In this document: positions 16,207-61,940 of the stretch, one piece after another | How positions within the stretch are numbered: the first letter of the stretch is position 1 | Layout of the letters: the number at the start of each line of letters is the position of its first letter | Assembly: GCA_016906335.1 (NCBI GenBank) | Contig: JADEYG010000001.1 | Location: forward strand, 62,001 to 126,000 | DNA: 64,000 nt | Direction: 5' to 3' | Source of the DNA: Novakomyces olei | Taxonomy: Eukaryota | The notes under the pieces: model-generated | Told to the model about the DNA's origin: nothing | The model's input: only the letters and a program-made list of their open reading frames with translations | The model's database searches: none | Position numbers and translations under genes: made by a program

Positions 16207-19200
16207 TCAGACGGCAATGGCCCAGCTTGTATCAGAGGCGGCAGCGAGATCAGACGCTGCTGCCTCTCCCTCCGCAGCCGTAGGCAAAAAGATCCTTGAT
16301 AAATCGGATAATTCTCCCTCTATAGCAAGCCCAGGCTGTGCATCGAGATCGAGATTGGCTTCCGTCTTGGCCACTGACGGGGTTGTAGATGCCTCCAAAG
16401 GCAGAATATCAGCATCGTCATTCAAAACAGACCTCAGTGCCTTGACAGACAGGGGCGGAGTGAGCAGGATATTGTCAGAACTGCCGCCAGAATCTCCACT
16501 GCCCATGTCGAGGGGAATAGGAGAGTCCAAAACGGCAGAGACCCGATCGGAAAAGTACTTTAAGGGATCAGCCAGAGCCACTGACCGGGCAGATTCCAAC
16601 TCTGCCGTTCTCACAGCAATATCGTCCACCTTGACATCCCTCACGGGACCCGTGTGCGGAGTAGAGATCATTGATAGTGGCGACATTTGACCGGCAGACG
16701 ATACGGGCACTGAGGCAGCAGCAGAAGAACTTGCGCCATAAAAGCCGTCTCCCGAGTGCTGCCGTTTTACTGGTGGCGTGTTTGCGTCCTCGGGAGTAAG
16801 GCCGTGTTTAAAGTTGAAGATTTGCATATCAGCGGCTCCTTCACGTTTTTCTTTTGTTTCTCCTTTAGCTCTTTGAGCAGCAGCAGCTGTAGCTGCTGCT
16901 GCTGCTGTTGCTGCTGCTTTGCTCTGTTTAGCTCCTTTTCCTGTTCCTGTTCCTGTTGCTCCTCCTCCTCCTGCCGCTGCCTGTTTCTGGTTGCGTCTTT
17001 GAGGCTTTGCCTTTGCCTGAGCTGTGGGCAGATTACCATTAGCCGCAGCTGACTGATTCGTATAAAAACTGCTCGTTCCAGTTGCACTTTGATTAGCCAT
17101 TTGCGCTTTAAGCTGCTGCTGCTGCTGCAACTGCATCTGCTGAAACTGCAGTTGCGCATATTGCTGGCTCATGGCCGGCAGCATTTCGCCCATCTGCACC
17201 TGGTTAGAAGCAGCCAGATTGCCGTTGTTTATTTGGCCGTTATTAGCGGCAATTTGGTTCATTGACTGGTTCATTGTTTGGTTCATTGACTGATTCATTG
17301 ACTGATTCATTGACTGATTCATTGGCTGGTTCATACTGCGGCCCAGACCGGCACTGTTTATGGGTGTCTGGCTGACGGTAGGATTCATCTGGAAATGCCT
17401 CCGCAGCAGCTGCTGTTGGGCATAGACGGTACGTTTGACAAAGGTAAAGTAACGGGAGATACTCTGCTTTAATTTTGCCAGTACTTCTGGCCGGATAATA
17501 AACCGGCCCCGGCCCAAATCTTCCAGCTGCATTCTGTACATCAGCTTCATTTGTACGAGTCGTTTAGTAGCATCTTCGTTCCCACTCAAGCAGTAGAAAA
17601 GGGCAATCAGCTGGTCAATCCTCTGGTACATTTGATACATGCTCTTTATCTGCTCAGCGACACTGGCCTTCTCCTGAGGGCTCAGGTTCGTAATCGCGTC
17701 TACATTCATTGTCTGAGCGCCCGCCTCCTCCATCAGCTCACGCAGTCTAATAGCAAACCGTGGCTGGCCGACTCGGCCTCCCGTCTCCAGCAAACGATGC
17801 ACAATACTGCTCTCTGACCCGTCCGTTCCTTGAGCCAGAGCTGCAAAACTGCCCAGTGAAGACTGCTGCCCTGGCCCACTCTGACTCTGAACAGGCTGCT
17901 GCTGACTAGTCAGATTGATGGGACTGGAAAACATTAGAGGGCTGCTCATTGGCCCCGGCTGATTTTGAAACGGAACAGTGTTGTTGTTGTTGCTGTTTGT
18001 ATAATTATTGCCATTATTGCCATTATTGCCGTTATTGCCATTATTAATATTATTGCCATTATTGTTATTAATACTATTATTATTGTTTGCATTCATGCCA
18101 GGCGCAGCAGCTTCCAGGCCCTGAAAGGATAAAAGCTTTGGTGTCGAGTTTGCACTGTGCACGTTACTGCCGCCTGGCGAAGAGCCTGTATTGTCCATTC
18201 CCTTGGCAAACGGAGGTCCCTGAGGTCCCTGTTTCGGGTCCGGGTTCTGCTTCATTTGCGGAGTAGCAGGCTTGCCTGTCCCCATCTTTCCCGGCCGAGA
18301 TTGGCCTCCTTTTTGAACATTATTCTGTGTCTGATGAGCAAATTGCTGCTGAATTTGTTGTTGCTGTTGCTGTTGCTGTTGTTGCTGTTGCTGTTGCTGC
18401 CTTTGTGAGCCTTGAAACTGAAAGTTTTCAAAGTCTATAGGCTGAGAGCCAAACTGCGAGTACTGCATCCCTGTACTCCCACCGCCAACGGCTCCAAGAA
18501 CGGGTCTCGCAGAGGGCTGTTTAAGTATTCCTGTACCACTGGCAGACTCGGGATCAGTGCCGCTGGCACTCTGGCCAGCGCCCTGAGCCGCCTGCATCTG
18601 CATCTGCATAAACTGGCTCCTTAGCGCCTGACAGTGCTGCTGGTAGACGATTCTTATCCTGTCCATCTGCTCACTGCTCAACGCTCTCCGCCGGCCGAGC
18701 TCTACAATCTGCTGCCACGTCGTTATTCCCGCAGGCAGGTTGGGTATTGTCGCCAGCATTTCTTTACTGATAGGGTACTTTGTCGGATCAGCTGCCGATG
18801 GCACTCCAGCAGACGCAGCCGGCCTGCCCGGCCGGACGGGCATACCGCCACTCGGCCGAGCTTGCTGAGGCCGTACCGTCTGAGCCATTGAGGGCATCTG
18901 CTGCTGTTGCTGTTGCTGTTGCTGTTGTTGTTTGCCATTATTATTGGTATTATTGTTTCCCTGTCTGCCGCCTGCGTTTAAAGGCATTTGATTAGAGTTT
19001 AATCCGTCCTTGGCCATTTGCTGCTGCTGCTGTTGTTGCTGTTGTTGCTGTTGTTGCTGCTGTTGCTGTTGTTGCTGAATAGACCGAAAAATAGCAAACA
19101 GCTTTTCTGGAGGAATCTGTTGCAATTGAGCAGGAGTCATATTATTGCCATGGCGCTGCTGCCACAAATGAATATGGTGCAGCATCATATTAATCTGCTG

Positions 19201-31408: not shown

Positions 31409-33295
<1,887 letters not shown>

Positions 33296-39800: not shown

Positions 39801-42800
39801 TTATCGCGACGCCAATACTGCTGCCCCAATGGCTCGCATTTCATCTCCCCTCGCTGATTCCAAAAACTCGATAATATGCTGCCGAGAAAGCTCCGGAAGC
39901 ACCATAGCAATCCTATCAATTTTGCCCTCTAAATCAGCTATTCCCGCCTCGTTTGAACTGTTGGTAGAAGCAGCAACTGCACTTCGTGGCGAGGCAGTGC
40001 GTGACTGTGCTGCTAGAGCAGCGGCAGAAGGCGTTCTGTACTGAGGCCAGTTCTTTGTACTCGTGAACTTGGACAGGCCCATGTCCATGTTTGTATTGAA
40101 ATAACTTTCAATCTCCGTATCACGTGCCGGCGCTTTCGGGTACGAAGGCTTCCTCTGCGACGTGGCGGATACATTCCCACTTGCAGACCGTTGCCGAGCT
40201 TCTTCAGGTGAAGGTAATTGCTGTTGCTTTGCAAAATTAAGCGAATGGCGACGATGGTCGTTACGCGTCCCGGAATCGTCTCTTAGTAATTTATTAAAAA
40301 AATTAGAAGGTCCTCTTGAACCCCGTTTGTCTGCTTTACTGCTGCCGCTGCCGGCTTCGCCCACGGGTACGGGACTGCCGATACTCGTCTTGTCAATACT
40401 GCCAACCGCACTGGACCCCGCTTCACCGCCTTTAAACCCTTTTTTAATCGACTTGTAAATGCCCAGCGCCGCTTCCTTTGACTTGTCGCCAATTCGTGAG
40501 GTTGAAAAGGACCGTAAATCCAGCCGTGAATGAGCTGAAGCTCCAGAGTGGTTATTACTCTCACCATTATTGCGACGAGAAGGCAAAATCCCGGACGAAG
40601 TATCGAGCAGTCTGTCGTAATCAATATTCAAATCACGACTGAGGCAGCCTCGACGTAAAACCGCTACTTTAAGCCATTGATCAATTTTACGCGGCTGACT
40701 TTCAATAATTTTTAGCCGCTCGTAATAAGCAGCGATCCGTTCACGACTACCACTCAGCCCGTAAATGTCTACGAAATCCAGATAGTGAGGTATTGCTTGG
40801 TTCGGCACAAGGCCGTCCAGCAGTTCAGGGACGGATGCGTCCTTTGCGAAAAAGTCGTCCTTACTCCGTCGTCGGTTCGAGTCCTGAGACGGTTCAAAAG
40901 AGTCAGTAGAAGGCTGCTCCTGCCCAAAATCTGAGCGGCTAAAAGATTCTAAGGGCGGAGCCCTTGCCTCTGCACTGGCCGAGTCATTTATGCCTTCTAT
41001 TTCATTCCCATTAGACTCAATGGACGTGGCTGTTCCAATTGACCCGGCTTCCCTAATCGCCTGCGCTTTGTCCTGATTGCGTGCCAGCCTTAAAGAGTCC
41101 CGGGCAGAGTTGGCGATCGATGCATTGTCCAGTGTCGACGCGTCGTCAATTGGCATATGAGAAGCCATATCGCTGCTTGTGACACTCGAGTCTGAATCTA
41201 CGTCCAACGCTTGCTTGAGCCGCTCCAAATCCATTGTCTCCCGGTGACGCAAGTCTATGAACCGAGGGTCCTCGTCGTAACCAGTGTCGCCAGAATTATT
41301 GTTTTCATTTCCACTTGCATTATTGCTAATACTTTTATAAATGTTATAGTCAACACCATCATTGGTATCAACGTACTCTTGAGACCTGCGCTCTGGTGTA
41401 AAAGCACCAGAGCTGAGCTTGTTCATAATCTCATCGTGCAGCTCTTCTGAAGGCAATCTATTGTGGCCAGACGCTGGTGGATAAGACGAGCCTACTGGGC
41501 TGTCTGCTTTTGTCTGTGATGATGTTACTAGCCCAAACCTTCGATTGGGATCTCGAGCCCGGCTTTTTGCTGCTGGTATGATAGCAGAGTGCTGCTCCGT
41601 ATTTTTGGGCAAATCTTTACTGGTCAAATCTATCTCATTTGCAAAGTCGTCATTGGCCCCAGGGTTTAATGTGTCGCTCGAAGCATCTGAGCTGGCAAAG
41701 TAGTCGTCCTCCATCTGATTCTTAGACCTTTGCTCGTCTTCAGGACTTTGCGCTCGGCCAACTGACTCGCGAGAGGAAGAAATTGGCCTCGATCTTTGCT
41801 CAGCAACAAATTCTCTAGACTCGTCTGCCTCACCAAAGGCCTTTTCTTTTTTATTTAGCAGAGCTTCAGGCTCATGTTCACGTTCACGTTCAGATTCTAA
41901 ATTCTTTCCAATACCCTTATCGCCCTCTCCGGTCTCAGGCCCGTACAGTCCTTCAGCTGGGACTGTTTTGTTTCCTTCTTTTATTGTTTCCGTCATTGCT
42001 TCTACTGCCTCCTCCTCCTCCGTGCCTTTACTATCAATCTCACTCTTTCCTGCTTCGCCGTTACCACTTGTATCCTGAATAAAAGCACTATGCAATTGCG
42101 GAACGCTAGGAACACTGTCATCGTCGGCATCAGCAATGTCAAAATCTGTATCCAAAAAGCCCATAGAAATTCGAGGATCAATCTTGTGACGAATCTCTGG
42201 TAGCCACGGTAGAGACTTGTCCGTCAGCCCTGAATCGTGTTTGAGCATTAGATCTGCTTTGCGCATTTTCTTTAATTCTGCAAGGGATATTTTCTCCGCT
42301 CTTCCATGTGGACGAGTCTGTTGGTGGATAACAGTATGGGGCTGAGAGACGGACAGAGACGAGTCAATACTGCTCCGCTGCTTATCTTTGGGCTCTTCAG
42401 ATTGGACTTCAACCGAGTTACGGGGGCTACCAAAGCCTACTGAGCCATCTTTCTCTAGTACAGTTGGAACTGTACTCGCAATCTCATTCTCAAGCGCAGA
42501 CTCTGTCGGCAGGGGAGGAAGATCGTGATTTATTTCTGTTAGTCTTTTTCGTTCTTCTTCTTTTCCTTCTTCCTCTTTTCCTTCTTCTTCTTCTTGTTTT
42601 TCTGCTTCCTGTTCGGCTAGCCTGGGGGGTAGAGACTCGATTGGCATAGTACTCTCAGCAACCTCTTCAATCTTGCCTGTCTTTACTTTGTCCTTTTCAG
42701 GAACAGTAGGCGGGTCCCGTTTGCCTATTGCTTCTCCCTTGTGAACAAAACCCGATTCGCTTATGCGCTTGCCAGTCTCGGTAGAAGGTTTCGTCTCTGA

Positions 42801-44087
42801 GCGGGAATCGTACTCTTGTTTCGTTTGGTCTGGTGACTGTTTCACCGGAACAAAAGGCTCTGAGGTTAGTTCTGGCTCCTCTTCCTTGGTATGTGACTGG
42901 CCTTTTGCATCGCTAATGGCCTCTGTGTCACGTTTATAGTCATGTGGCTGTGGCTGCGACTGTGACTGTAATGAACTGTTCAAATTGCTCCCCGTAGACG
43001 ACGCATTTTGCACAGGCTCAGGCCGGTCATGGACTACCTCGGCCGGCAATTGCCGAGCAAATTTGCGCGCGTCAAGAGACTGATCAGAGCCAGTTGCTTT
43101 GGCGGGGAAAGATGTACGGCCACCGGCATCCGTGCCGGCACCAAGCGCTAAATTCCTTAGTGGAGAAGACCTTCCTGACTGCATAGCTGAACCTGAGGGC
43201 GAAACGCTTGCAGAAAATGGAGACCGCCTTCCCGGAGAGGCAGCTGCACTTGGCGACGATCCTCGAGAGCCATTCGCACTAGAATTCGTATTAGAATCCG
43301 CTGCTGACGGTGTAGACTCTCCTGCTCTTAGAGCAGCATTTGCACGTTCAGCTTTCTCCTTTAAAAGCTGTGCTTTAAGCGCACGTTTGCGTTCTGCCCA
43401 TTGAGTCACAGCGAGATTCATGCTTTTTGTACGGTTTGGTGGTTCCTGATCCGCTTTTTTGCTATTATTGTCCTTTGACTCGGGCACAGGAGGAACAGGC
43501 GGCATAGTTGTAACAAAAGAAGCAGGCGGCATAGGCGGTGCTGGAGGAGGAGGAGGAGGAGACAATTTATCTTGGCTGGCTGGTTCAACTGCGCTAGCAG
43601 CAGCAGTTGTAGGAGTATACGAGCTAGCGGAATCGTAAGCAGGAGAATCATAGGCCGAGTCGTGTGGCACATAGTGTGACGCTGTATATGTCTCAAGGCT
43701 CGGAAGCAGTTTTCTGCTTTCGCCATTGCCAGTTGGTCCGTCCCTTACGGCAGATTTATGAGGCAAATCTGCACTCAGATCTCTGCCAAGCTGGATCCCT
43801 AACTGTTCCTTGCCCATATTATTCTGATCGTTTCGATCGGCCTGCTCACTTTGATTACTCGAGCCAAATAGGGGCAAAGGCGACTGCGGCCGCTTGACGA
43901 ATGCAAAAGTAGGAGTCATCGGTCGAGGCGGAGCCGGCTCGGCCAGCGGTGAAACAGGTCGGCTTGCTGAACTATGTAAACGGGGCACAAAGGGCGGAGT
44001 ACGGCTTGCCTGCGAGCCATCATCATCGTCACTCGCCCACTCGTCGCCCTCATAGTTAGGACGCGTCCAAGACTGTCGTGCGCTCAT
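39801..44087 (-). CDS. Large disordered protein, Fyv8-like, with a CUE/UBA-like C-terminus
   Basis: 1428-aa ORF. NYEGDEW N-terminal motif and DIYGLSGSRERIAAYYERL..IDQWL resemble fungal Fyv8-like proteins as I recall them. The gene is solid, the family is tentative. Confidence 0.65.
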   Translation of the reverse strand: MSARQSWTRPNYEGDEWASDDDDGSQASRTPPFVPRLHSSASRPVSPLAEPAPPRPMTPTFAFVKRPQSPLPLFGSSNQSEQADRNDQNNMGKEQLGIQLGRDLSADLPHKSAVRDGPTGNGESRKLLPSLETYTASHYVPHDSAYDSPAYDSASSYTPTTAAASAVEPASQDKLSPPPPPPAPPMPPASFVTTMPPVPPVPESKDNNSKKADQEPPNRTKSMNLAVTQWAERKRALKAQLLKEKAERANAALRAGESTPSAADSNTNSSANGSRGSSPSAAASPGRRSPFSASVSPSGSAMQSGRSSPLRNLALGAGTDAGGRTSFPAKATGSDQSLDARKFARQLPAEVVHDRPEPVQNASSTGSNLNSSLQSQSQPQPHDYKRDTEAISDAKGQSHTKEEEPELTSEPFVPVKQSPDQTKQEYDSRSETKPSTETGKRISESGFVHKGEAIGKRDPPTVPEKDKVKTGKIEEVAESTMPIESLPPRLAEQEAEKQEEEEGKEEEGKEEERKRLTEINHDLPPLPTESALENEIASTVPTVLEKDGSVGFGSPRNSVEVQSEEPKDKQRSSIDSSLSVSQPHTVIHQQTRPHGRAEKISLAELKKMRKADLMLKHDSGLTDKSLPWLPEIRHKIDPRISMGFLDTDFDIADADDDSVPSVPQLHSAFIQDTSGNGEAGKSEIDSKGTEEEEAVEAMTETIKEGNKTVPAEGLYGPETGEGDKGIGKNLESEREREHEPEALLNKKEKAFGEADESREFVAEQRSRPISSSRESVGRAQSPEDEQRSKNQMEDDYFASSDASSDTLNPGANDDFANEIDLTSKDLPKNTEQHSAIIPAAKSRARDPNRRFGLVTSSQTKADSPVGSSYPPASGHNRLPSEELHDEIMNKLSSGAFTPERRSQEYVDTNDGVDYNIYKSISNNASGNENNNSGDTGYDEDPRFIDLRHRETMDLERLKQALDVDSDSSVTSSDMASHMPIDDASTLDNASIANSARDSLRLARNQDKAQAIREAGSIGTATSIESNGNEIEGINDSASAEARAPPLESFSRSDFGQEQPSTDSFEPSQDSNRRRSKDDFFAKDASVPELLDGLVPNQAIPHYLDFVDIYGLSGSRERIAAYYERLKIIESQPRKIDQWLKVAVLRRGCLSRDLNIDYDRLLDTSSGILPSRRNNGESNNHSGASAHSRLDLRSFSTSRIGDKSKEAALGIYKSIKKGFKGGEAGSSAVGSIDKTSIGSPVPVGEAGSGSSKADKRGSRGPSNFFNKLLRDDSGTRNDHRRHSLNFAKQQQLPSPEEARQRSASGNVSATSQRKPSYPKAPARDTEIESYFNTNMDMGLSKFTSTKNWPQYRTPSAAALAAQSRTASPRSAVAASTNSSNEAGIADLEGKIDRIAMVLPELSRQHIIEFLESARGDEMRAIGAAVLASR

Positions 44088-44185: not shown

Positions 44186-44397
<212 letters not shown>

Positions 44398-44612
44398 TGT
44401 TGAATATAGAAGGTTGGAATTTGCTCTTATGGTAGATTAAATGAATTAGATACTCTAGATTGCTTCAGCTGAATCCCCCCCGAGGGTGTGAGGGTTCGCT
44501 TGAGCTATATATATGTAACTATGTATTTTTGAGTGAGTATTCTGTAAAGCTAAAAGTCAAACAACTGACACTCATGGTTGAGTTGTCTTAGCCGGTCAGT
44601 GAGTCGGCGAGT

Positions 44613-44698
<86 letters not shown>

Positions 44699-44725
44699 AG
44701 GGGATAATAGATTCATATTTCAACA
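44398..44725 (-). repeat. 3' LTR, 328 bp, containing (TAT)28 at 44614-44697
   Basis: Direct repeat of 49419-49722 with TGTTGAA..TTCAACA termini. Confidence 0.97.
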
Positions 44726-44760
44726 CTCCCCTTGAATCTTTTATTTCCTTTTTGTATTCT
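44726..44760 (-). other. Polypurine tract
   Basis: Minus strand reads ..AAAAAGGAAATAAAAAGATTCAAGGGGAG immediately before the 3' LTR. Confidence 0.85.
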
Positions 44761-44779
44761 TGTATTTATTTTTTTTTTG

Positions 44780-46426
44780 TTATTCTTCATTGTATAGCAT
44801 TTTTGTAAATTTAGTGAATTTGTTTCCAAGTAGGTTCTTGGTCAATCCATCTGCCTTCATGTTTCGTGAGGGGCATCTCTGTATGCTTATCAGTCCATTT
44901 CTCACAATATCCATCACATAGTAGCGGGTGTTACTTAGATGTTTTGAACCCTGGTAGTTTCCACCATTAGTTGCAAGTAATATGCAGGCGTTGTTATCGC
45001 AGTAGACGATTGGGATGTTATCGGGCCCTTTATTAATTTCGTCCATTAGATATTTGTAGTACAAGGCTTGATTGACTGTTAGTTTCATAGCTTCGAACTC
45101 CGCCATCATTGTACTTGGTGTTACAATTTTTTGCTTTTGCGAGTTCCAGGCTATTGGGCCGTTATTTTTTCCTAGTGAGACAACGTATCCTGATCGGGAT
45201 TTTCTGTCGCAAGTGTCTCCGGCGAAATCAGAGTCGCCCCACGAGTGTATCTGTAGATCATTTTCTCTAGTGTAGGTGATACATGTGTCCAGTGTAGCGT
45301 TTAGATATCTCATAGTGTGTTTTAAGGCCTGTATTTGTTCTTCATTTTGTCTTTTTGTATGTTTGCTTAACATACTTATTGCAAATCTGAGGTCTGGTCT
45401 TGTCCATTCGGTCAAATATATTAATTTTCCTATAATAGTTGGATAGATTTCCAGACAATCATAATTTTCATCCGCGGGATGATAGAGTGAATTGATGTTT
45501 GTGATGGGCTGACTTATGTATTTTAGGTTAGTGTCTCCGTAAGTGCGTATAATTGACTTAGCAAATTGTGACTGTGACAATTTGAGTATTCCTTTGTCGC
45601 GATCATATGTAATGTCCATACCAAGATATCTCTTTATTTTTCCAAGTGACTTGATGGAGTAAAATGTTTTCAAAAAGGATTCAAATTCAAGTCTCTTTCC
45701 TTTCTGTTTTTCGACGATCATGAGGTCATCTACGTAGACAGCAATAATTAAAGAGTCATTGTAATATATGGCAGAATCTTTGTTTGATTTTGTTAGACCG
45801 TATTTTGTCAATGTAGAATCCAGTTCACTGTTCCACGATCTTGGTGCCTGTTTGAGACCATAGAGACTTTTGTTTAATTTTAGGACAAGGCCGGGTTTAA
45901 TTTTCACTCCATCGGGTTTTTTCATGTACACTGACTCCTTTAGTGTACCATATAGGAAGGCTGTATCCACGTCGATTTGATAGATTTCATAATTTTTAAT
46001 TACGCTGTAAGCTAATAACCACCGTATGCTGTCAGGACGAGCGACTGGGGCGTATGTATCTTCATAGTCTTTTCCAAAAATCTGTGAGTACCCTTGTGCT
46101 ACTAGTCTTGCTTTTCTAATTATTTCATTCGACTGTTCTCCTTGTTTCAGTTTAAACACCCATCTGCATCCAACTGTACGTATATTTTGTGATTGGGGAA
46201 CGACTTTCCATACTTCATTTCTTTCCATTGCTTTTAGTTCTTTATTTATTGCTTCTTTCCACTGATTCCCAAATGGCCCAGTGATTGCTTCATTGTAATT
46301 TTGAGGCTCAATGTCAGGAGCTTCAATGTGATTAACGCCTCCTTTGGGTCTGTTTAATATTTTCCTTTGACCATTTTTAAGGAAAAGGGGGGAAAGGATT
46401 TTCTTCAATTTTCTTTGGAGATCCCT
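44780..46426 (-). CDS. Retrotransposon pol: reverse transcriptase and RNase H (open frame, -1 relative to integrase)
   Basis: KARLVAQGY, QIDVDTAFL, SLYGLKQAPRSW, VYVDDL, DSDFAG, CDN and ADGLTK. Confidence 0.96.
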   Translation of the reverse strand, partial: RDLQRKLKKILSPLFLKNGQRKILNRPKGGVNHIEAPDIEPQNYNEAITGPFGNQWKEAINKELKAMERNEVWKVVPQSQNIRTVGCRWVFKLKQGEQSNEIIRKARLVAQGYSQIFGKDYEDTYAPVARPDSIRWLLAYSVIKNYEIYQIDVDTAFLYGTLKESVYMKKPDGVKIKPGLVLKLNKSLYGLKQAPRSWNSELDSTLTKYGLTKSNKDSAIYYNDSLIIAVYVDDLMIVEKQKGKRLEFESFLKTFYSIKSLGKIKRYLGMDITYDRDKGILKLSQSQFAKSIIRTYGDTNLKYISQPITNINSLYHPADENYDCLEIYPTIIGKLIYLTEWTRPDLRFAISMLSKHTKRQNEEQIQALKHTMRYLNATLDTCITYTRENDLQIHSWGDSDFAGDTCDRKSRSGYVVSLGKNNGPIAWNSQKQKIVTPSTMMAEFEAMKLTVNQALYYKYLMDEINKGPDNIPIVYCDNNACILLATNGGNYQGSKHLSNTRYYVMDIVRNGLISIQRCPSRNMKADGLTKNLLGNKFTKFTKMLYNEE

Positions 46427-48369
46427 TCAAGATTTAATTTTCTTTCACCAGAAAGGATTTCCTGCAGCGGGTCTATTTTTCTGAATTTTTCGTCTCCTAG
46501 TTGCTCTGATGACGTTTTTCTTTTTCGCGCAGGTTGATTTCCTGGGCTGATAAGCTCTAGGCTTGGTTCCTCTTCTATTTCAATTATAGAATTATTTTTT
46601 GATTCAATGTTCTTTAAATTATTGTCAATTTCCATGTTTGATTGAGGGTCGTCACTTTCCTCATCGTCTGTATTTGATTTATTTCCACTTGGCTCTGTTG
46701 AGTCTTCGATCGAGTCCTTTAGGTTGTCAGATGACTGATTTTCCTCAGAATTGGCTTGCGTGGGATTTTCAGAATTTTTGTTAATATTTAACGTATCATC
46801 AGGCGGAGTTTGGGGCGTTTCGAGAGTATTTGATAGACTATTTGGCGATTTGATTTGTTCAGGTACCTTGTTTGACAGTTCACTACTTAGCTTTGGTAGA
46901 TTGTCAATTATAGTTGTGTTGATCCCTTGCGTGGGATGAGTTGTGTCGTGGTCCCTTTTATTCTCCGTATCGGCTTCAGTATTATTTTTGTATGTAAGTT
47001 CGCTGTATATTTGATTTTCATTATAATCAGTAGCAGTGGAATTATTAATCTGTTCGTTTTCAAGGAATTTGACATTTCGAGATACGACTCTTTTCCCATT
47101 TTTGAGATTGGACAGTATGTAGCCTTTCTGTGTTTCAGAGTAGCCGATAAAAATGTATTCATCTCCTCTTTGTTCCAGCTTGGTTTTGTTATTGGCGTGC
47201 TTGTCCAGTGCTATTGCCAAGCAACCAAACACTTTCAGATTGTCCAGATTCGGAGGTCTTTTGTAGATTGTTTCGTACGGAGTCTTTGGTGCTATTCTAG
47301 TTGGTAGTCGATTTTTCAGGTAGCAACTAGTGACCACAGCATCACTCCAGAATTTTATCGGGACTTTGCGTGCTAGTAGTAGGCTTCGTGCCTTCGATAA
47401 TATTGTTCGATTTGCGCGTTCCGCTACTCCATTTTGCTGTGGAGTGTAAGCGGTGCTAGTTTGGTGTATAATGCCATGTTTTTTGCACAGTTCATGCATT
47501 TCGGCATTGATGTATTCCAGACCGTTGTCTGTTCTTAATGTTTTTATCATTTTTCCAAATTGTGTTTTAACAAATGGAATTAACTCTGCGAAGATTTGGG
47601 TGACTTCATTTTTATTCTTCATCAATTTTATGAACGTGAAGCCCGACAGGTCTTCTATAAATGTAACGAAGTATTTGTAATTAAATTCAGAATTTAGATT
47701 GATAGGCCCGCACACGTCGCTGTGCACCAGGTCAAATAGACCTGTTGGTCTGCTTCTCCCCGTATTTGGGAAGGGTTCCCGAGTTATATTTGCTGTTGTA
47801 CATGTATGACATGGTTCAATATCGTTGATTTTAATTAATTGTATTTTCCCTGTGGCTTTTCCGTTTATCAGCTCTAGCAGGTACTGTTTATTTGTGTGGC
47901 CTAGCCTTTCGTGCCACAGTTTTGCCTTTTCGGCACTATCTTCAGTAACAGAATTTGAAATGTATTCGTTATGATAGATTGGTTTTGCAGTGAAATAAAA
48001 TATATTATTATTTTTCTTGAGTCGCATAATTGGTTTTGCGTTGCTCATTAACGTTAACTTAGATTCGGCAATTGTCATGGAATTTTTTCCACTGAATGCC
48101 TGTAGAATGAGCGGATTGAATAAATTTGTGCCGTACTTAGGGGCATATAAGACGTTTGATAGGATCAGCGTTGATCCCAGGTCATCCCTAACTTTTAAAA
48201 TTATTGTTCCAATTCCTGATACGGGAGAGCAATTGTCCTTCCCTGTTTGAATAGTAGATCTGATGTAATTTATTTTATTAAAGTATTTGATATCTGAGCA
48301 TATGTGACTAGTGGCCCCTGTATCGAGAATCCACTCAGTGATATCTCCAGGTGTCCCTTTGTTACCTAG
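46405..48369 (-). CDS. Retrotransposon pol: aspartic protease and integrase, in frame with gag after a single TGA
   Basis: Manual translation from 48369 is open (LGNKGTPGDITEWILDTGATSHICS...) and runs into the 557-aa ORF with WHERLGH..CHTC, VHSDVCGP, RTDNGLEY and QNGVAER. Confidence 0.95.
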   Translation of the reverse strand, partial: LGNKGTPGDITEWILDTGATSHICSDIKYFNKINYIRSTIQTGKDNCSPVSGIGTIILKVRDDLGSTLILSNVLYAPKYGTNLFNPLILQAFSGKNSMTIAESKLTLMSNAKPIMRLKKNNNIFYFTAKPIYHNEYISNSVTEDSAEKAKLWHERLGHTNKQYLLELINGKATGKIQLIKINDIEPCHTCTTANITREPFPNTGRSRPTGLFDLVHSDVCGPINLNSEFNYKYFVTFIEDLSGFTFIKLMKNKNEVTQIFAELIPFVKTQFGKMIKTLRTDNGLEYINAEMHELCKKHGIIHQTSTAYTPQQNGVAERANRTILSKARSLLLARKVPIKFWSDAVVTSCYLKNRLPTRIAPKTPYETIYKRPPNLDNLKVFGCLAIALDKHANNKTKLEQRGDEYIFIGYSETQKGYILSNLKNGKRVVSRNVKFLENEQINNSTATDYNENQIYSELTYKNNTEADTENKRDHDTTHPTQGINTTIIDNLPKLSSELSNKVPEQIKSPNSLSNTLETPQTPPDDTLNINKNSENPTQANSEENQSSDNLKDSIEDSTEPSGNKSNTDDEESDDPQSNMEIDNNLKNIESKNNSIIEIEEEPSLELISPGNQPARKRKTSSEQLGDEKFRKIDPLQEILSGERKLNLEGISKEN

Positions 48370-49326
48370 TCACAGGATAGGCTCAGTATTGTTAATCTTT
48401 ACGTTATACACCGATTGTTTTTTTGAATTTTTGTATTCATGTTTTCTGCAATCTTTTGTCAAATGTCCATATATTCTGCAATTGTTACAGTATCTTGCGT
48501 TTTTCCCATTAGGATTCTTAAAGCAGTCATTTGTTTTGTGGCCATTCTTATCGCAGTAACCGCATTTGTTAACAGACTTTTTAGACTGTCTCTCAGCCTT
48601 ATCGCTATATCCATTGTTTCCACTTTTGAAATTTTGATTTGATCTGTTGATATGATAGGTAGATTCTTCTCCTCGAACAGGAATATGGTGGGCTCCATTT
48701 CCGGAATAGGAAGTCTTATCCATTGTGTAATAAATTAGTTCATTATCGATAAGGTCAAGTAGATCAAATACGTGGGTCTCAGAATTAATAGTGGAGCTCA
48801 CGTTGTGTCGGATTGTATTTGCAATGTCGCGAGGTATTGCAGAAAGTATGCCGCAATAGGCAAAGTAGGTGAGTTCCGTGTAGCCGAGTCGAACTAAATT
48901 TACGATTTGTTTTCTGTATTCCGTAATAAAGTTTTCCGGGTCTCCATTCCATAGTTTCGACGGATTCATAAATTTTGATACAATGGATTCGGTCACTTGA
49001 TGCTTTCTTTTTTCGAATTCGGTGTCCAGTAGTTCAAATAGTTTTTGAGGGGTTTTGAGCCCTTCGATTCGGGGTCCAAGAAGATCCCCACTTATTGCTT
49101 CGACTAGTTCAGCCGTGACTATTAGTGTGCTCACATTCGACACTGTAGTTGTGTCGACAGAATTGTCTAGCAGCGATGAAAGGCCATGTAATTCAAGTCT
49201 ATTTTTGATTTTAATTCTCCACTCCAGATAGGAATGCCAATCTTTCAATTGAGGGATGACTCCAAGAATAATAGTATTATTTCTGATGCTAGATGCCTGT
49301 CCGGGGGTGACATTGACATCAGCCAT
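48370..49326 (-). CDS. Retrotransposon gag with two CCHC zinc knuckles
   Basis: First ATG after the PBS (MADVNV). Knuckles CGYCDKNGHKTNDC and CNNCRIYGHLTKDC. Confidence 0.92.
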   Translation of the reverse strand: MADVNVTPGQASSIRNNTIILGVIPQLKDWHSYLEWRIKIKNRLELHGLSSLLDNSVDTTTVSNVSTLIVTAELVEAISGDLLGPRIEGLKTPQKLFELLDTEFEKRKHQVTESIVSKFMNPSKLWNGDPENFITEYRKQIVNLVRLGYTELTYFAYCGILSAIPRDIANTIRHNVSSTINSETHVFDLLDLIDNELIYYTMDKTSYSGNGAHHIPVRGEESTYHINRSNQNFKSGNNGYSDKAERQSKKSVNKCGYCDKNGHKTNDCFKNPNGKNARYCNNCRIYGHLTKDCRKHEYKNSKKQSVYNVKINNTEPIL

Positions 49327-49407
49327 TTGAGCTTTGAATAAGAGAAATAGTTTTATTAAAAGACAGCGAGCGGTATCTTGAGTTTGAAATTCAACAATCA
49401 CCTTCCA

Positions 49408-49418
49408 GGCTCATAACC
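49408..49418 (-). other. Primer-binding site GGTTATGAGCC (internal tRNAi-Met, half-tRNA type)
   Basis: Directly follows the 5' LTR end on the minus strand and resembles the Ty5/copia-type PBS. Confidence 0.85.
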
Positions 49419-49633
49419 TGTTGAATATAGAAGGTTGGAATTTGCTCTTATGGTAGATTAAATGAATTAGATACTCTAGATTGCTTCAGCTGAATCCCCC
49501 CCGAGGGTGTGAGGGTTCGCTTGAGCTATATATATGTAACTATGTATTTTTGAGTGAGTATTCTGTAAAGCTAAAAGTCAAACAACTGACACTCATGGTT
49601 GAGTTGTCTTAGCCGGTCAGTGAGTCGGCGAGT

Positions 49634-49695
<62 letters not shown>

Positions 49696-49722
49696 AGGGG
49701 ATAATAGATTCATATTTCAACA
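49419..49722 (-). repeat. 5' LTR, 304 bp, containing (TAT)20 at 49635-49694
   Basis: Direct repeat of 44398-44725. Confidence 0.97.
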
Positions 49723-49882
<160 letters not shown>

Positions 49883-52601: not shown

Positions 52602-53934
52602 AAATAAATAAATAATAAATAAAAATAAATAAATAAACCTACCGTCGAAGCAATTGCTGTACATCTACTGCTTCGATAGTTTTCCGGCCAGCGTGTTCAG
52701 CATAAGCGGCCATATCATTTGAAATTTGTGCAAAGAATTGATTTGTTGCATGCTCTATCGGCTCAATACATTCGCCTGCCAATTTACGAGGCCCAAGAGC
52801 TCCAGAAAGCCGCTTTATGAAGGCCCGTGGTAATAATGGAACTTCTCGTCCAAGAGCAGAAACACTGTGTATTGTTAGTGTTGTATACTTAAATAACAAG
52901 ACTTGCAGTTTTTTTCGCGCAATGCGAGGTCTCCGAGGCCGTTCCTCAATTGTCGGTATGTTTGCTATGTCGTCATTATTGAAAGAAATATTAAAGTGAA
53001 CCGTTTCTTCTTCAGCTTGTCCTACAGCTTCATCCGCTAGCGTGTAATCCAAACTTCCGGGACTCAAAGGGCCCCCGTCAAGTGCTTGTACTGCCAGTGG
53101 GCCAGTGTCTCCTAGACTAAAGTCGGCCGCACTAATAGAAGAGCGCCGCCTGAATGATAATCGGTCCCGTGTTCGTATTGCTTGTTCAATAGACGCCGCT
53201 GTGCCGCCATCTTCAGCATCTTGGATCCTTGACGTAAATATTTCGGAATTTGCATCGCCAAAGTCTGTACTAATATTCATCTCATAGTCCTTATCGTCGT
53301 AATTTAAATCGTGATTTTCGTTCTTTTCACCTGTCTCGTTTGTCTGCTGATCCTCCGTGTCGCGCACGTCCATCGTTGCACGATTGCCACCGTCTAATAT
53401 TGGGCCGATTTCTTTTTCTCCTCCTTCTTTCTCTCCTTCAGTCGGTTCGTAAGCTGCTTCATTGTCGTGCTCAGCGGCTCTCACCGTTTCCTGCCTCTCC
53501 CGCTGTTCTCGTAAAAGAGCACGTGACAAGTTACGCAGCAGATCACGAGCCGGTTCATGGCCGTTTACGCGTGCAGCCGACCGGCGTCGCACGCTCATTG
53601 GTGTATTTACGCGTTGCCGTTGTTTTTCTAGTGCGCGCGCGGTATGCGGCGTTTGCCGTGCCGGTGTGGCCGTCGTGCGCGGTGTATGTGGGATTCTGAC
53701 AGCGACGCGCCGACTTTCCAGCGCTCCAGTGAGGCTTTGTAGCTATCACAACACGCGTTAACCCTAAACAACAAACTAGATTGATTTTGCATTTTATACC
53801 TCATTATGGGGGGTTCGCGGTCCCCTTGCAGATCGTGTTAAAAACGCGTCATCTGTGTCCGTACTCTGTATTCGCACGGGCGTAGAAGGCTGCGACGCGG
53901 ATTTCCGCAGAGAGATTCGTGATCCGGGGATCAT
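52349..53934 (-). CDS. Kinetochore histone-fold protein CENP-T (Cnp20/Cnn1 family); exons approx. 53934-53800, 53742-52907, 52864-52643, 52460-52349
   Basis: C-terminal histone fold FFAQISNDMAAYAEHAGRKTIEAVDVQQLLRRQR..FLPRE. The frame is open upstream of the ORF-track ATG to an acceptor at 53743 and a TP-rich first exon. Confidence 0.85.
52537..52637. repeat. Degenerate (AAAT)n in the last CENP-T intron
   Basis: Directly visible. Confidence 0.85.
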
Positions 53935-61151: not shown

Positions 61152-61940
61152 ATGCCGCGAGGACCAAAGAAGCATTTGAAGCGTTTGGCGGCTCCACACG
61201 GATGGATGCTGGACAAATTGTCCGGCACCTACGCCCCAAAGCCCTCGCCTGGTCCGCACAAGGGCCGCGAGTGCCTTCCCTTGGTTATCTTTTTGCGCAA
61301 TCGTCTCAAGTACGCGCTCAACGGCCGTGAAGTCAAGCAGATCCTGATGCAGCGCCTCGTCAAGGTGGACAACAAAGTACGCACTGATACAACTTATCCT
61401 GCCGGATTCCAGGATGTCATCTCTATTCCCACGACTGGCGAGAACTTTCGCCTTGTGTACGACACAAAAGGCCGTTTCACTATTCACCGCATCACTGCTG
61501 AGGAGGCCACCTACAAGTTGCTCAAAGTGAAAAAGTGCCAACTTGGCGCTAAGGGTGTTCCTTTCTTGGTCACCCACGATGGCCGCACCTTGCGCTACCC
61601 TGATCCTTCGATCAAAGTTCACGATACAGTAAAGTTCAACTTGGAGACGGGAAAGATTGAGGACTTTGTAAAGTTCGATATCGGCAACGTCGTTATGGTC
61701 ACTGGCGGTAACTCGATTGGCCGCGTCGGTGTCATCACACACCGTGAGCGCCATGAAGGCTCATTTGATATTATCCATGTCAAAGACGCCCTTGACCGCA
61801 CTTTTGCTACCCGTATGAGCAATGTGTTTGTCATCGGCAAGGGCGCCAAGACCTGGGTCTCTCTGCCAAAGGGCAAGGGTATTGCTCTTTCTATTGGTGA
61901 AGAGCGTGATCGCCGCCGTGCTCTGCAAGAGCGTGCGTAG
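61152..61940 (+). CDS. RPS4: 40S ribosomal protein S4 (eS4)
   Basis: [23 protein letters not shown] start, full-length 262 aa. Confidence 0.99.

Follow-up and report, generated by a model that had tools for sequence, protein, structure and literature searches.

How does a copia-type retrotransposon express its pol gene when gag and pol lie in one frame and a stop codon separates them? This question is raised by a Ty1/copia long terminal repeat (LTR) retrotransposon of 5,325 bp, which lies in a window of 64,000 nucleotides from Novakomyces olei (GenBank assembly GCA_016906335.1, contig JADEYG010000001.1, positions 62,001 to 126,000 of the forward strand). All coordinates given here are those of the whole window; the element occupies 44398-49722 on the minus strand and its features are read 5′ to 3′ on that strand. 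Its gag open reading frame (ORF) ends with a UGA that is followed directly by CUAG. This UGA is probably a genuine and selected gag terminator, leaky enough to be read through at UGA-CUAG, in a young copia-type element of a budding-yeast-like fungus, with a putative primer site of the Ty5 type.

The junction reads, on the minus strand, ...AAC AAT ACT GAG CCT ATC CTG TGA CTA GGT AAC AAA GGG ACA CCT GGA GAT ATC ACT GAG TGG ATT CTC GAT ACA GGG GCC ACT AGT CAC..., which translates as ...NNTEPIL*LGNKGTPGDITEWILDTGATSH..., and the spacer after the UGA is CUAGGUAA. The features around it are:

48373..49326, minus strand: gag ORF, 318 codons from its ATG
48564-48523 and 48489-48448, minus strand: the two CCHC zinc knuckles of gag
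48370..48372, minus strand: gag stop codon UGA, in frame with pol
48366..48369, minus strand: CUAG directly 3′ of the UGA, made of the first pol codon CUA and the G of GGU
46408..48369, minus strand: first part of pol, protease and integrase, 654 codons without a stop
48324-48313, minus strand: DTGA of the protease

The stop-to-stop ORFs on either side of the UGA (48370..49410 and 46405..48369) share one frame. Beyond the UGA there follow 654 codons without a stop in this frame, which cover protease and integrase, and the other two frames contain 42 and 61 stops. The junction therefore stands as it had been described in the original prediction, with gag ending in CCT ATC CTG TGA and continuing in frame as CTA GGT AAC, on the minus strand. 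That description put the protease motif about 12 codons after the stop; the shared frame holds, but the distance needs a small correction, since the W of WILDTGATSH lies 13 codons on. It also stated that no further stop occurs until the end of integrase, which is true for the 654 codons but omits that the reverse transcriptase (RT)/RNase H region beyond them is out of frame. The UGA is located 26 codons past the last CCHC knuckle and 13 codons ahead of the protease W, a residue present in 111 of 120 aligned relatives. This stretch, a variable linker, is where gag naturally gives way to pol. What short-motif readthrough calls for in the sequence is found here, namely a UGA followed by CUAG with protease and integrase in frame downstream.

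Other simple routes around the stop were considered. As had been noted from the start, there is no ATG ahead of the protease: beyond the UGA, an in-frame ATG first appears at 48078, at a distance of 97 codons that puts it behind the DTGA active site. The protease therefore cannot be made from a start of its own, and separate initiation of pol was rejected. GTATGT and TACTAAC are the yeast splice consensus motifs; the former occurs once in the element (45375) and the latter never, and with neither of them near the junction, removal of the stop by splicing was rejected. Reassignment of UGA in the host can be dismissed as well, because UGA serves as a normal stop there: of 15 host ORFs of the window, 4 end with TGA, 7 with TAG and 4 with TAA.

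Could the stop be there by accident? For the three ORFs of the element we listed every one-base substitution by which a stop arises, with transitions weighted twice. Among such random nonsense substitutions, 2.5% fall in the 38-codon gag-protease linker (from the last knuckle to the protease W). As to context, 25.9% of them give a TGA, 4.8% TGA-C, 1.9% TGA-CT and 0.25% TGA-CTAG, and the joint chance of hitting the linker with a TGA-CT is about 0.05%, if independence is assumed. A chance nonsense mutation at such a place and in such a context is very unlikely, and a selected leaky gag terminator is favoured because chance gives the linker position in only 2.5% and TGA-CT in only 1.9% of cases. 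The claim that the stop is not a mutation and that it serves programmed readthrough is thus upheld with regard to position and context, and is weakened by the fact that this copy, with RT out of frame, is not demonstrably intact. The word TGACTAG is not enriched in the window (8 matches versus 5.2 expected; 16 of 100 shuffles reach 8). At one of these 8 places, in a Med15-like ORF, the word occurs on both strands as an overlapping palindrome (17903-17912), which is not significant.

The view that UGA-CUA(G) is a leaky motif agrees with published work, which reports leakiness in human cells and in a fungus. Efficient readthrough in Ustilago maydis needs no more than CU after the UGA, a further A is of help in HeLa cells, and UGA CUA(G) is suggested by the authors to be a weak context for termination (PMC4207609). 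Four genes that are efficiently read through in HEK-293T cells carry UGA-CUAG; the values given are 1.5% for UGA-CUA alone, about 3.5% for MDH1 and about 31% for OPRL1, and UGA-CUAG is said there to be common to several alphaviruses (PMC4132726). For Saccharomyces cerevisiae, another study describes exceptionally high readthrough when a C follows any of the three stops, UGA-C being the leakiest of the tetranucleotides and favouring Cys-tRNA (PMC4748822). The Gag:Pol need of retroelements is put at about 20:1 (PMC2194720), and a readthrough of a few per cent would fit this need.

We infer the following sequence of events, including the occurrence and the rate of readthrough and the nature of the inserted amino acid. 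Most ribosomes would end at the UGA and release Gag. A few per cent would decode the UGA by a near-cognate tRNA, since UGA-CUAG would terminate poorly, and these ribosomes would stay in frame into protease and integrase, giving a Gag-Pol fusion. The low rate of readthrough would set the excess of Gag, and a downstream RNA structure would not be needed.

Such a structure had nevertheless been proposed, in the form of a hairpin a short distance after the stop. The segments concerned, together with an inverted repeat found at the junction, are:

48317..48351, minus strand: proposed hairpin, CCUGGAGA..CAC UGA GUG..UCUC..CAGG, -9.9 kcal/mol
48366..48374, minus strand: 5′ arm of a 9-bp inverted repeat, UGUGACUAG, holding the stop and CUAG
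48303..48311, minus strand: 3′ arm of the 9-bp inverted repeat, CUAGUCACA, the T-S-H codons of DTGATSH

The hairpin can form, yet it is no more stable than shuffled sequences: compared with 300 dinucleotide shuffles of 48351-48317 (mean -7.6 kcal/mol), its z-score is -0.92 and 18% of the shuffles are equally stable. It starts 18 nt past the stop, instead of the spacing of 8 nt described for murine leukaemia virus (MuLV) and for Tca2, an element of Candida albicans. The 80 nt and the 150 nt that follow the stop give z-scores of -0.47 and -0.13. No purine-rich 8-nt spacer followed by a pseudoknot was seen after the UGA, in an analysis made without a dedicated pseudoknot program. The two Rfam matches, both below threshold and due to chance, fell in the microsatellite of the LTR (CrcZ scored 19.4 bits versus a gathering score of 95). 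The minimum-energy fold joins UGUGACUAG to CUAGUCACA, 55 nt downstream. In the 5,325-bp element no other perfect inverted repeat reaches 9 bp with a loop of 100 nt or less; the 76-nt segment has a z-score of -1.96, with 3.7% of 300 shuffles equally stable, and synonymous recoding of the neighbourhood attains 9 bp in 439 of 20,000 trials (2.2%). The repeat is a suggestive feature, picked out post hoc, and we leave it unexplained. In any case, a stem that contains the stop has to be open while the stop is decoded.

Several observations weigh against readthrough of a selected stop at this junction. A stimulatory structure is unsupported, the folds of 37-150 nt past the stop having z-scores between -0.92 and -0.13. 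The 5′ context, ..AUC CUG, places U and G before the UGA and not A-A, the pair of adenines that is reported to favour readthrough in yeast (cited in PMC10085805). The window contains one copy only, and no relative above about 43% identity is listed that could show whether TGACTAG is kept. Tca2 (also called pCal), the sole copia element with an in-frame UGA to have been tested, gave no readthrough from its local context in S. cerevisiae; its 3′ context, AAAACAGG, differs from the one found here. Finally, the frame is broken between integrase and RT, so that a second lesion is conceivable and the copy is not demonstrably intact.

The Tca2 case deserves some attention, as it had been taken to be the known example of UGA readthrough. 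In this Ty1/copia element a single UGA interrupts the common frame of gag and pol. After the UGA come the purine-rich AAAACAGG and a pseudoknot that has been proposed; the primer-binding site of Tca2 matches an internal part of tRNA-Arg(UCU). When the Tca2 junction (300 nt) was assayed in S. cerevisiae, readthrough was 0.3%, i.e. the same as for a control stop; a weak promoter was found at the junction, and the authors concluded that the stop is bypassed in a non-canonical manner. To present Tca2 as an established readthrough case was therefore an overstatement, since the only direct test gave the value of the control stop.

The break between integrase and RT involves the following features:

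46405..46426, minus strand: frame break; the protease-integrase frame ends with TGA 46407-46405, and that of RT, the -1 frame, opens at 46426
44783..46426, minus strand: second part of pol, RVT_2 reverse transcriptase and a C-terminal RNase H-like region, 548 codons
44782-44780, minus strand: stop codon TAA of the second part of pol

Relative to gag-protease-integrase, the RT/RNase H ORF (46426-44783) uses the -1 frame, and the stretch open in both frames is only 20 nt long and A-rich. It contains no canonical slippery heptamer of the X_XXY_YYZ type, the sole candidate being A AAU UGA, and the 111 nt around the break fold no better than shuffles (z-score -0.03); both results rule against a programmed -1 frameshift at this point. 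We take the break for a lesion of this copy and not for a mechanism; its probable cause is a small indel, which would be of the sort that reverse transcription often makes in A-rich runs. A general problem of assembly indels seems unlikely, because the long host ORFs are intact. As a consequence of the break the copy is probably non-autonomous, which slightly weakens the argument from position and context but does not overturn it.

How, then, do the other explanations compare with a selected stop that is leaky at UGA-CUAG? The stop might be just as genuine and selected, and Pol be obtained by some non-canonical bypass, as proposed for Tca2, through distant cis elements, a host factor, a promoter at the junction, reinitiation or RNA processing. 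We hold this to be unlikely. It is true that the 300-nt junction of Tca2 was at background and that its weak promoter went along with the inference of a non-canonical bypass, and the 9-bp inverted repeat on the stop and CUAG could be regulatory; however, no in-frame ATG precedes the protease active site, the yeast splice signals for which we scanned are absent near the junction, the 3′ context is unlike that of Tca2 and matches a motif that works alone in other eukaryotes, and the stem holding the stop must melt when the stop enters the A site. Another possibility is that the copy is dead and the UGA one of the common nonsense mutations that inactivate such copies, in which case the ancestor had a single gag-pol ORF like Ty5, Tca5 and Tpa5. 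Ty5-type elements do normally have one ORF, several sense codons need a single base change to become TGA, the -1 frame of RT is a second feature that breaks the ORF, and a single copy in the window, with no relatives for comparison, leaves room for such an accident. But the location and the TGA-CT context stand against it (2.5% and 1.9%, hence about 0.05% jointly under independence), as do LTRs without a substitution in 247 bp and ORFs of 318, 654 and 548 codons that are otherwise free of stops in AT-rich DNA, and on balance we find a nonsense lesion distinctly improbable.

At the far end of the scale are explanations to which we give very little credit. One would take the copy to be intact and to use two successive recodings on one mRNA, readthrough at UGA-CUAG and then a -1 shift at the integrase stop, with Gag, Gag-protease-integrase and Gag-protease-integrase-RT as products and the 9-bp stem tuning the first step. 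At A AAU UGA the P-site tRNA would re-pair on AAA with the stop waiting in the A site. This double recoding strikes us as highly improbable. Even more so is a TGA created by a sequencing or assembly error, for which nothing specific speaks, apart from the A-rich surroundings of the break at 46426-46407, a kind of sequence that is prone to indel errors: a substitution to TGA at the domain boundary is as improbable by error as by mutation, and the 15 open host ORFs (258-1,428 codons) argue for a good base quality, so that we hardly believe in it.

Preferring, then, the leaky terminator, we may ask where the element stands among known systems. In the Tca2 lineage of hemiascomycete copia elements the in-frame stop is a hallmark and a novelty, derived from single-ORF Ty5-like ancestors (PMC4022208). 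Our element resembles this lineage in that its gag and pol are separated by an in-frame UGA. It differs by having CUAGGUAA after the UGA with no supported structure, whereas Tca2 has its purine-rich segment and a proposed pseudoknot, and by a primer-binding site that contains ATG (the complement of CAU) and no AGA, unlike a site of the tRNA-Arg type. The hosts differ too: this one reads CTG as leucine, whereas C. albicans belongs to the CTG-Ser clade. With the Ty5-like elements (Ty5, Tca5, Tpa5 and centromere-associated families) our element shares the copia gene order and LTR ends of the form TGTTG...CAACA. Its putative primer-binding site lies directly against the LTR and may be complementary to the anticodon stem-loop of tRNA-iMet, of which the window has no gene. 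Complementarity to that stem-loop is called diagnostic of the Ty5 family (PMC12711049). The LTRs are of about 300 bp and the element is low in GC, as reported for the LTRs of Tpa5; those of Tpa5 start with TCTTG and measure 322 bp, and Tca5 and Tpa5 consist of one uninterrupted gag-pol ORF (which is typical, not strictly defining) instead of having an in-frame UGA.

A parallel at the junction itself is found in fission yeasts. According to the report on Tj1, Tosmo1-3 and Tcry1, GAA TGA CT is strictly conserved at their gag-pol junction, and the stop of Tj1 is essential for transposition (PMC10085805). An in-frame TGA followed by CT(A/G) is common to those elements, where it is interpreted as programmed readthrough, and to ours. 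However, they are Ty3/gypsy elements (Tf1/sushi branch, with the order protease-RT-integrase) from another host subphylum, and the conserved codon before their stop is GAA, with AA before the stop, in place of CUG. The same UGA CUAG heptanucleotide is present in alphaviruses (nsP3/nsP4), in mammalian OPRL1, OPRK1, AQP4, MAPK10 and MDH1 and in fungal peroxisomal isoforms, and in OPRL1, Ross River and Getah the next base is also a G (CUAGG), as here; but these short-motif cases are cellular genes or RNA viruses, none of them a retrotransposon gag-pol junction. MuLV likewise has an in-frame stop between gag and pol, and there a readthrough of about 5% sets the ratio of Gag to Gag-Pol; it differs by having a UAG, an 8-nt spacer and a pseudoknot, for which the present junction gives no supported counterpart. 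In the literature searched, which excluded most subscription journals, UGA-CUAG was not reported for any element of the copia or Ty5 type. It is already known, however, that the Tca2 lineage has an in-frame UGA and that fission-yeast gypsy elements have UGA-CU(A/G), and because of the latter the novelty is lower than the original prediction implied.

Protein relatives were sought that might show a stop or a sense codon at the junction. With Gag-X-protease-integrase as the query there were 379 matches among 7,999 scored sequences, and the best 120 were generic copia polyproteins with 26-43% identity. Gag alone brought 822 candidates, none with E ≤ 0.001. In an exhaustive HMMER search with protease-integrase, the best 150 of 80,590 matches were 27-39% identical, and the same range was obtained for the best 120 matches of RT to longer proteins. 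There were no named yeast copia sequences among these best 120, 150 and 120 matches, and an exact look-up in a protein collection recovered none of six proteins of the window. At 43% identity or less among the matches listed, the relatives are too distant to inform us about the junction codon. An attempt to name the residue that faces the stop was abandoned as dependent on the alignment: with 10 sequences, 7 of the 9 relatives have F in the UGA column, one has L and one has I, and with 121 sequences it is a gap in 72 of 120 and mixed in the others.

As for the remaining anatomy of the element, its terminal features are:

49419..49722, minus strand: 5′ LTR, 304 bp, TGTTG...CAACA, with an internal (AAT)19
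44398..44725, minus strand: 3′ LTR, 328 bp, TGTTG...CAACA, with an internal (AAT)27
49405..49418, minus strand: putative primer-binding site, GGTTATGAGCCTGG, abutting the 5′ LTR
44726..44733, minus strand: polypurine tract, AAGGGGAG, directly before the 3′ LTR
49723..49727 and 44397-44393, minus strand: flanking ATTAT and its other copy, which fit a 5-bp target duplication

Outside the repeat run (30 + 217 bp) the two LTRs match at 247 of 247 positions, and their sole difference is the length of the (AAT) run, 19 versus 27 units. The insertion is recent and the copy young, because the non-repeat sequence of the LTRs is identical. The putative primer-binding site GGTTATGAGCCTGG includes the reverse complement of a CAU-anticodon loop, i.e. 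ATG, which would suit half-tRNA priming of the Ty5 type, and lacks AGA; the 64-kb window contains no tRNA gene, that of the host tRNA-iMet included, and a literature search with the primer-site word returned unrelated primers only. The gene order gag - protease - integrase - RT/RNase H is that of Ty1/copia elements (Pseudoviridae), and the structural features of the group are present: TG...CA LTRs, a primer-binding site, a polypurine tract and a 5-bp duplication. The last of these carries little weight and is uninformative as a target duplication, since the ATTAT pair lies within a host (ATT)n microsatellite. That microsatellite, a long one (44200-44397 and 49723-49880), is the insertion site, and the element sits about 310 bp upstream of the start of a 1,428-codon ORF (39801-44087).

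In gag, Pfam finds the CCHC match and no gag domain, and a feature search (Atlas; copia-gag-like features) places the protein near copia gag clusters. The first part of pol matches Pol_BBD (the protease barrel), gag_pre-integrs, rve (the integrase core) and SH3_retrovirus, and ends in a low-complexity tail. RNase H was assigned from its position in the second part, where it has no separate Pfam match. None of the three ORFs (318, 654 and 548 codons) has an internal stop, while their alternative frames hold 15-61 stops each. The GC content of the element is 37%, compared with about 41-52% in the rest of the window, and the element matches only itself and its own LTRs there, with no further copies or solo LTRs.

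The host genes of the window have long ORFs of fungal type, most of them without introns (Med15_fungi, Fungal_trans, a LEU1-like isopropylmalate dehydratase and others), and the 15 long ones, of 258-1,428 codons, are all open. In the LEU1-like gene 25 of 54 leucine codons are CTG, and eight CTG codons in the stretch aligned with an archaeal homologue face V, M, a gap, F, F, L, Y and M. From this codon use and this alignment a reassignment of CTG was rejected; CTG means leucine, and the host is therefore outside the CTG-Ser clade, to which C. albicans belongs. Two ORFs, one glutamate dehydrogenase-like (32348-33295, plus strand) and one for ribosomal protein S4e (61152-61940, plus strand), begin inside their first Pfam domain, which suggests 5′ introns in these genes of an otherwise intron-poor genome. 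A gene for a CENP-T histone-fold kinetochore protein (52639-53598, minus strand) is located about 3 kb from the element, and nothing marks a centromere in its surroundings. Ty5-like elements cluster at centromeres in some yeasts (PMC12711049).

Among copia elements with an in-frame gag stop, the sole one tested for its expression of Pol, Tca2, failed to show local readthrough. The present stop lies in a minimal and portable UGA-CUAG motif, which would make it an easy model for reporters in yeast. Nothing of the sort follows if the stop is only a lesion. If, on the other hand, the Ty5-type primer site holds, then the strategy of an in-frame stop would have arisen in elements that do not belong to the Tca2 lineage, or earlier than the divergence of that lineage from the Ty5-like elements, in parallel to the UGA-CU junctions of the fission-yeast gypsy elements.

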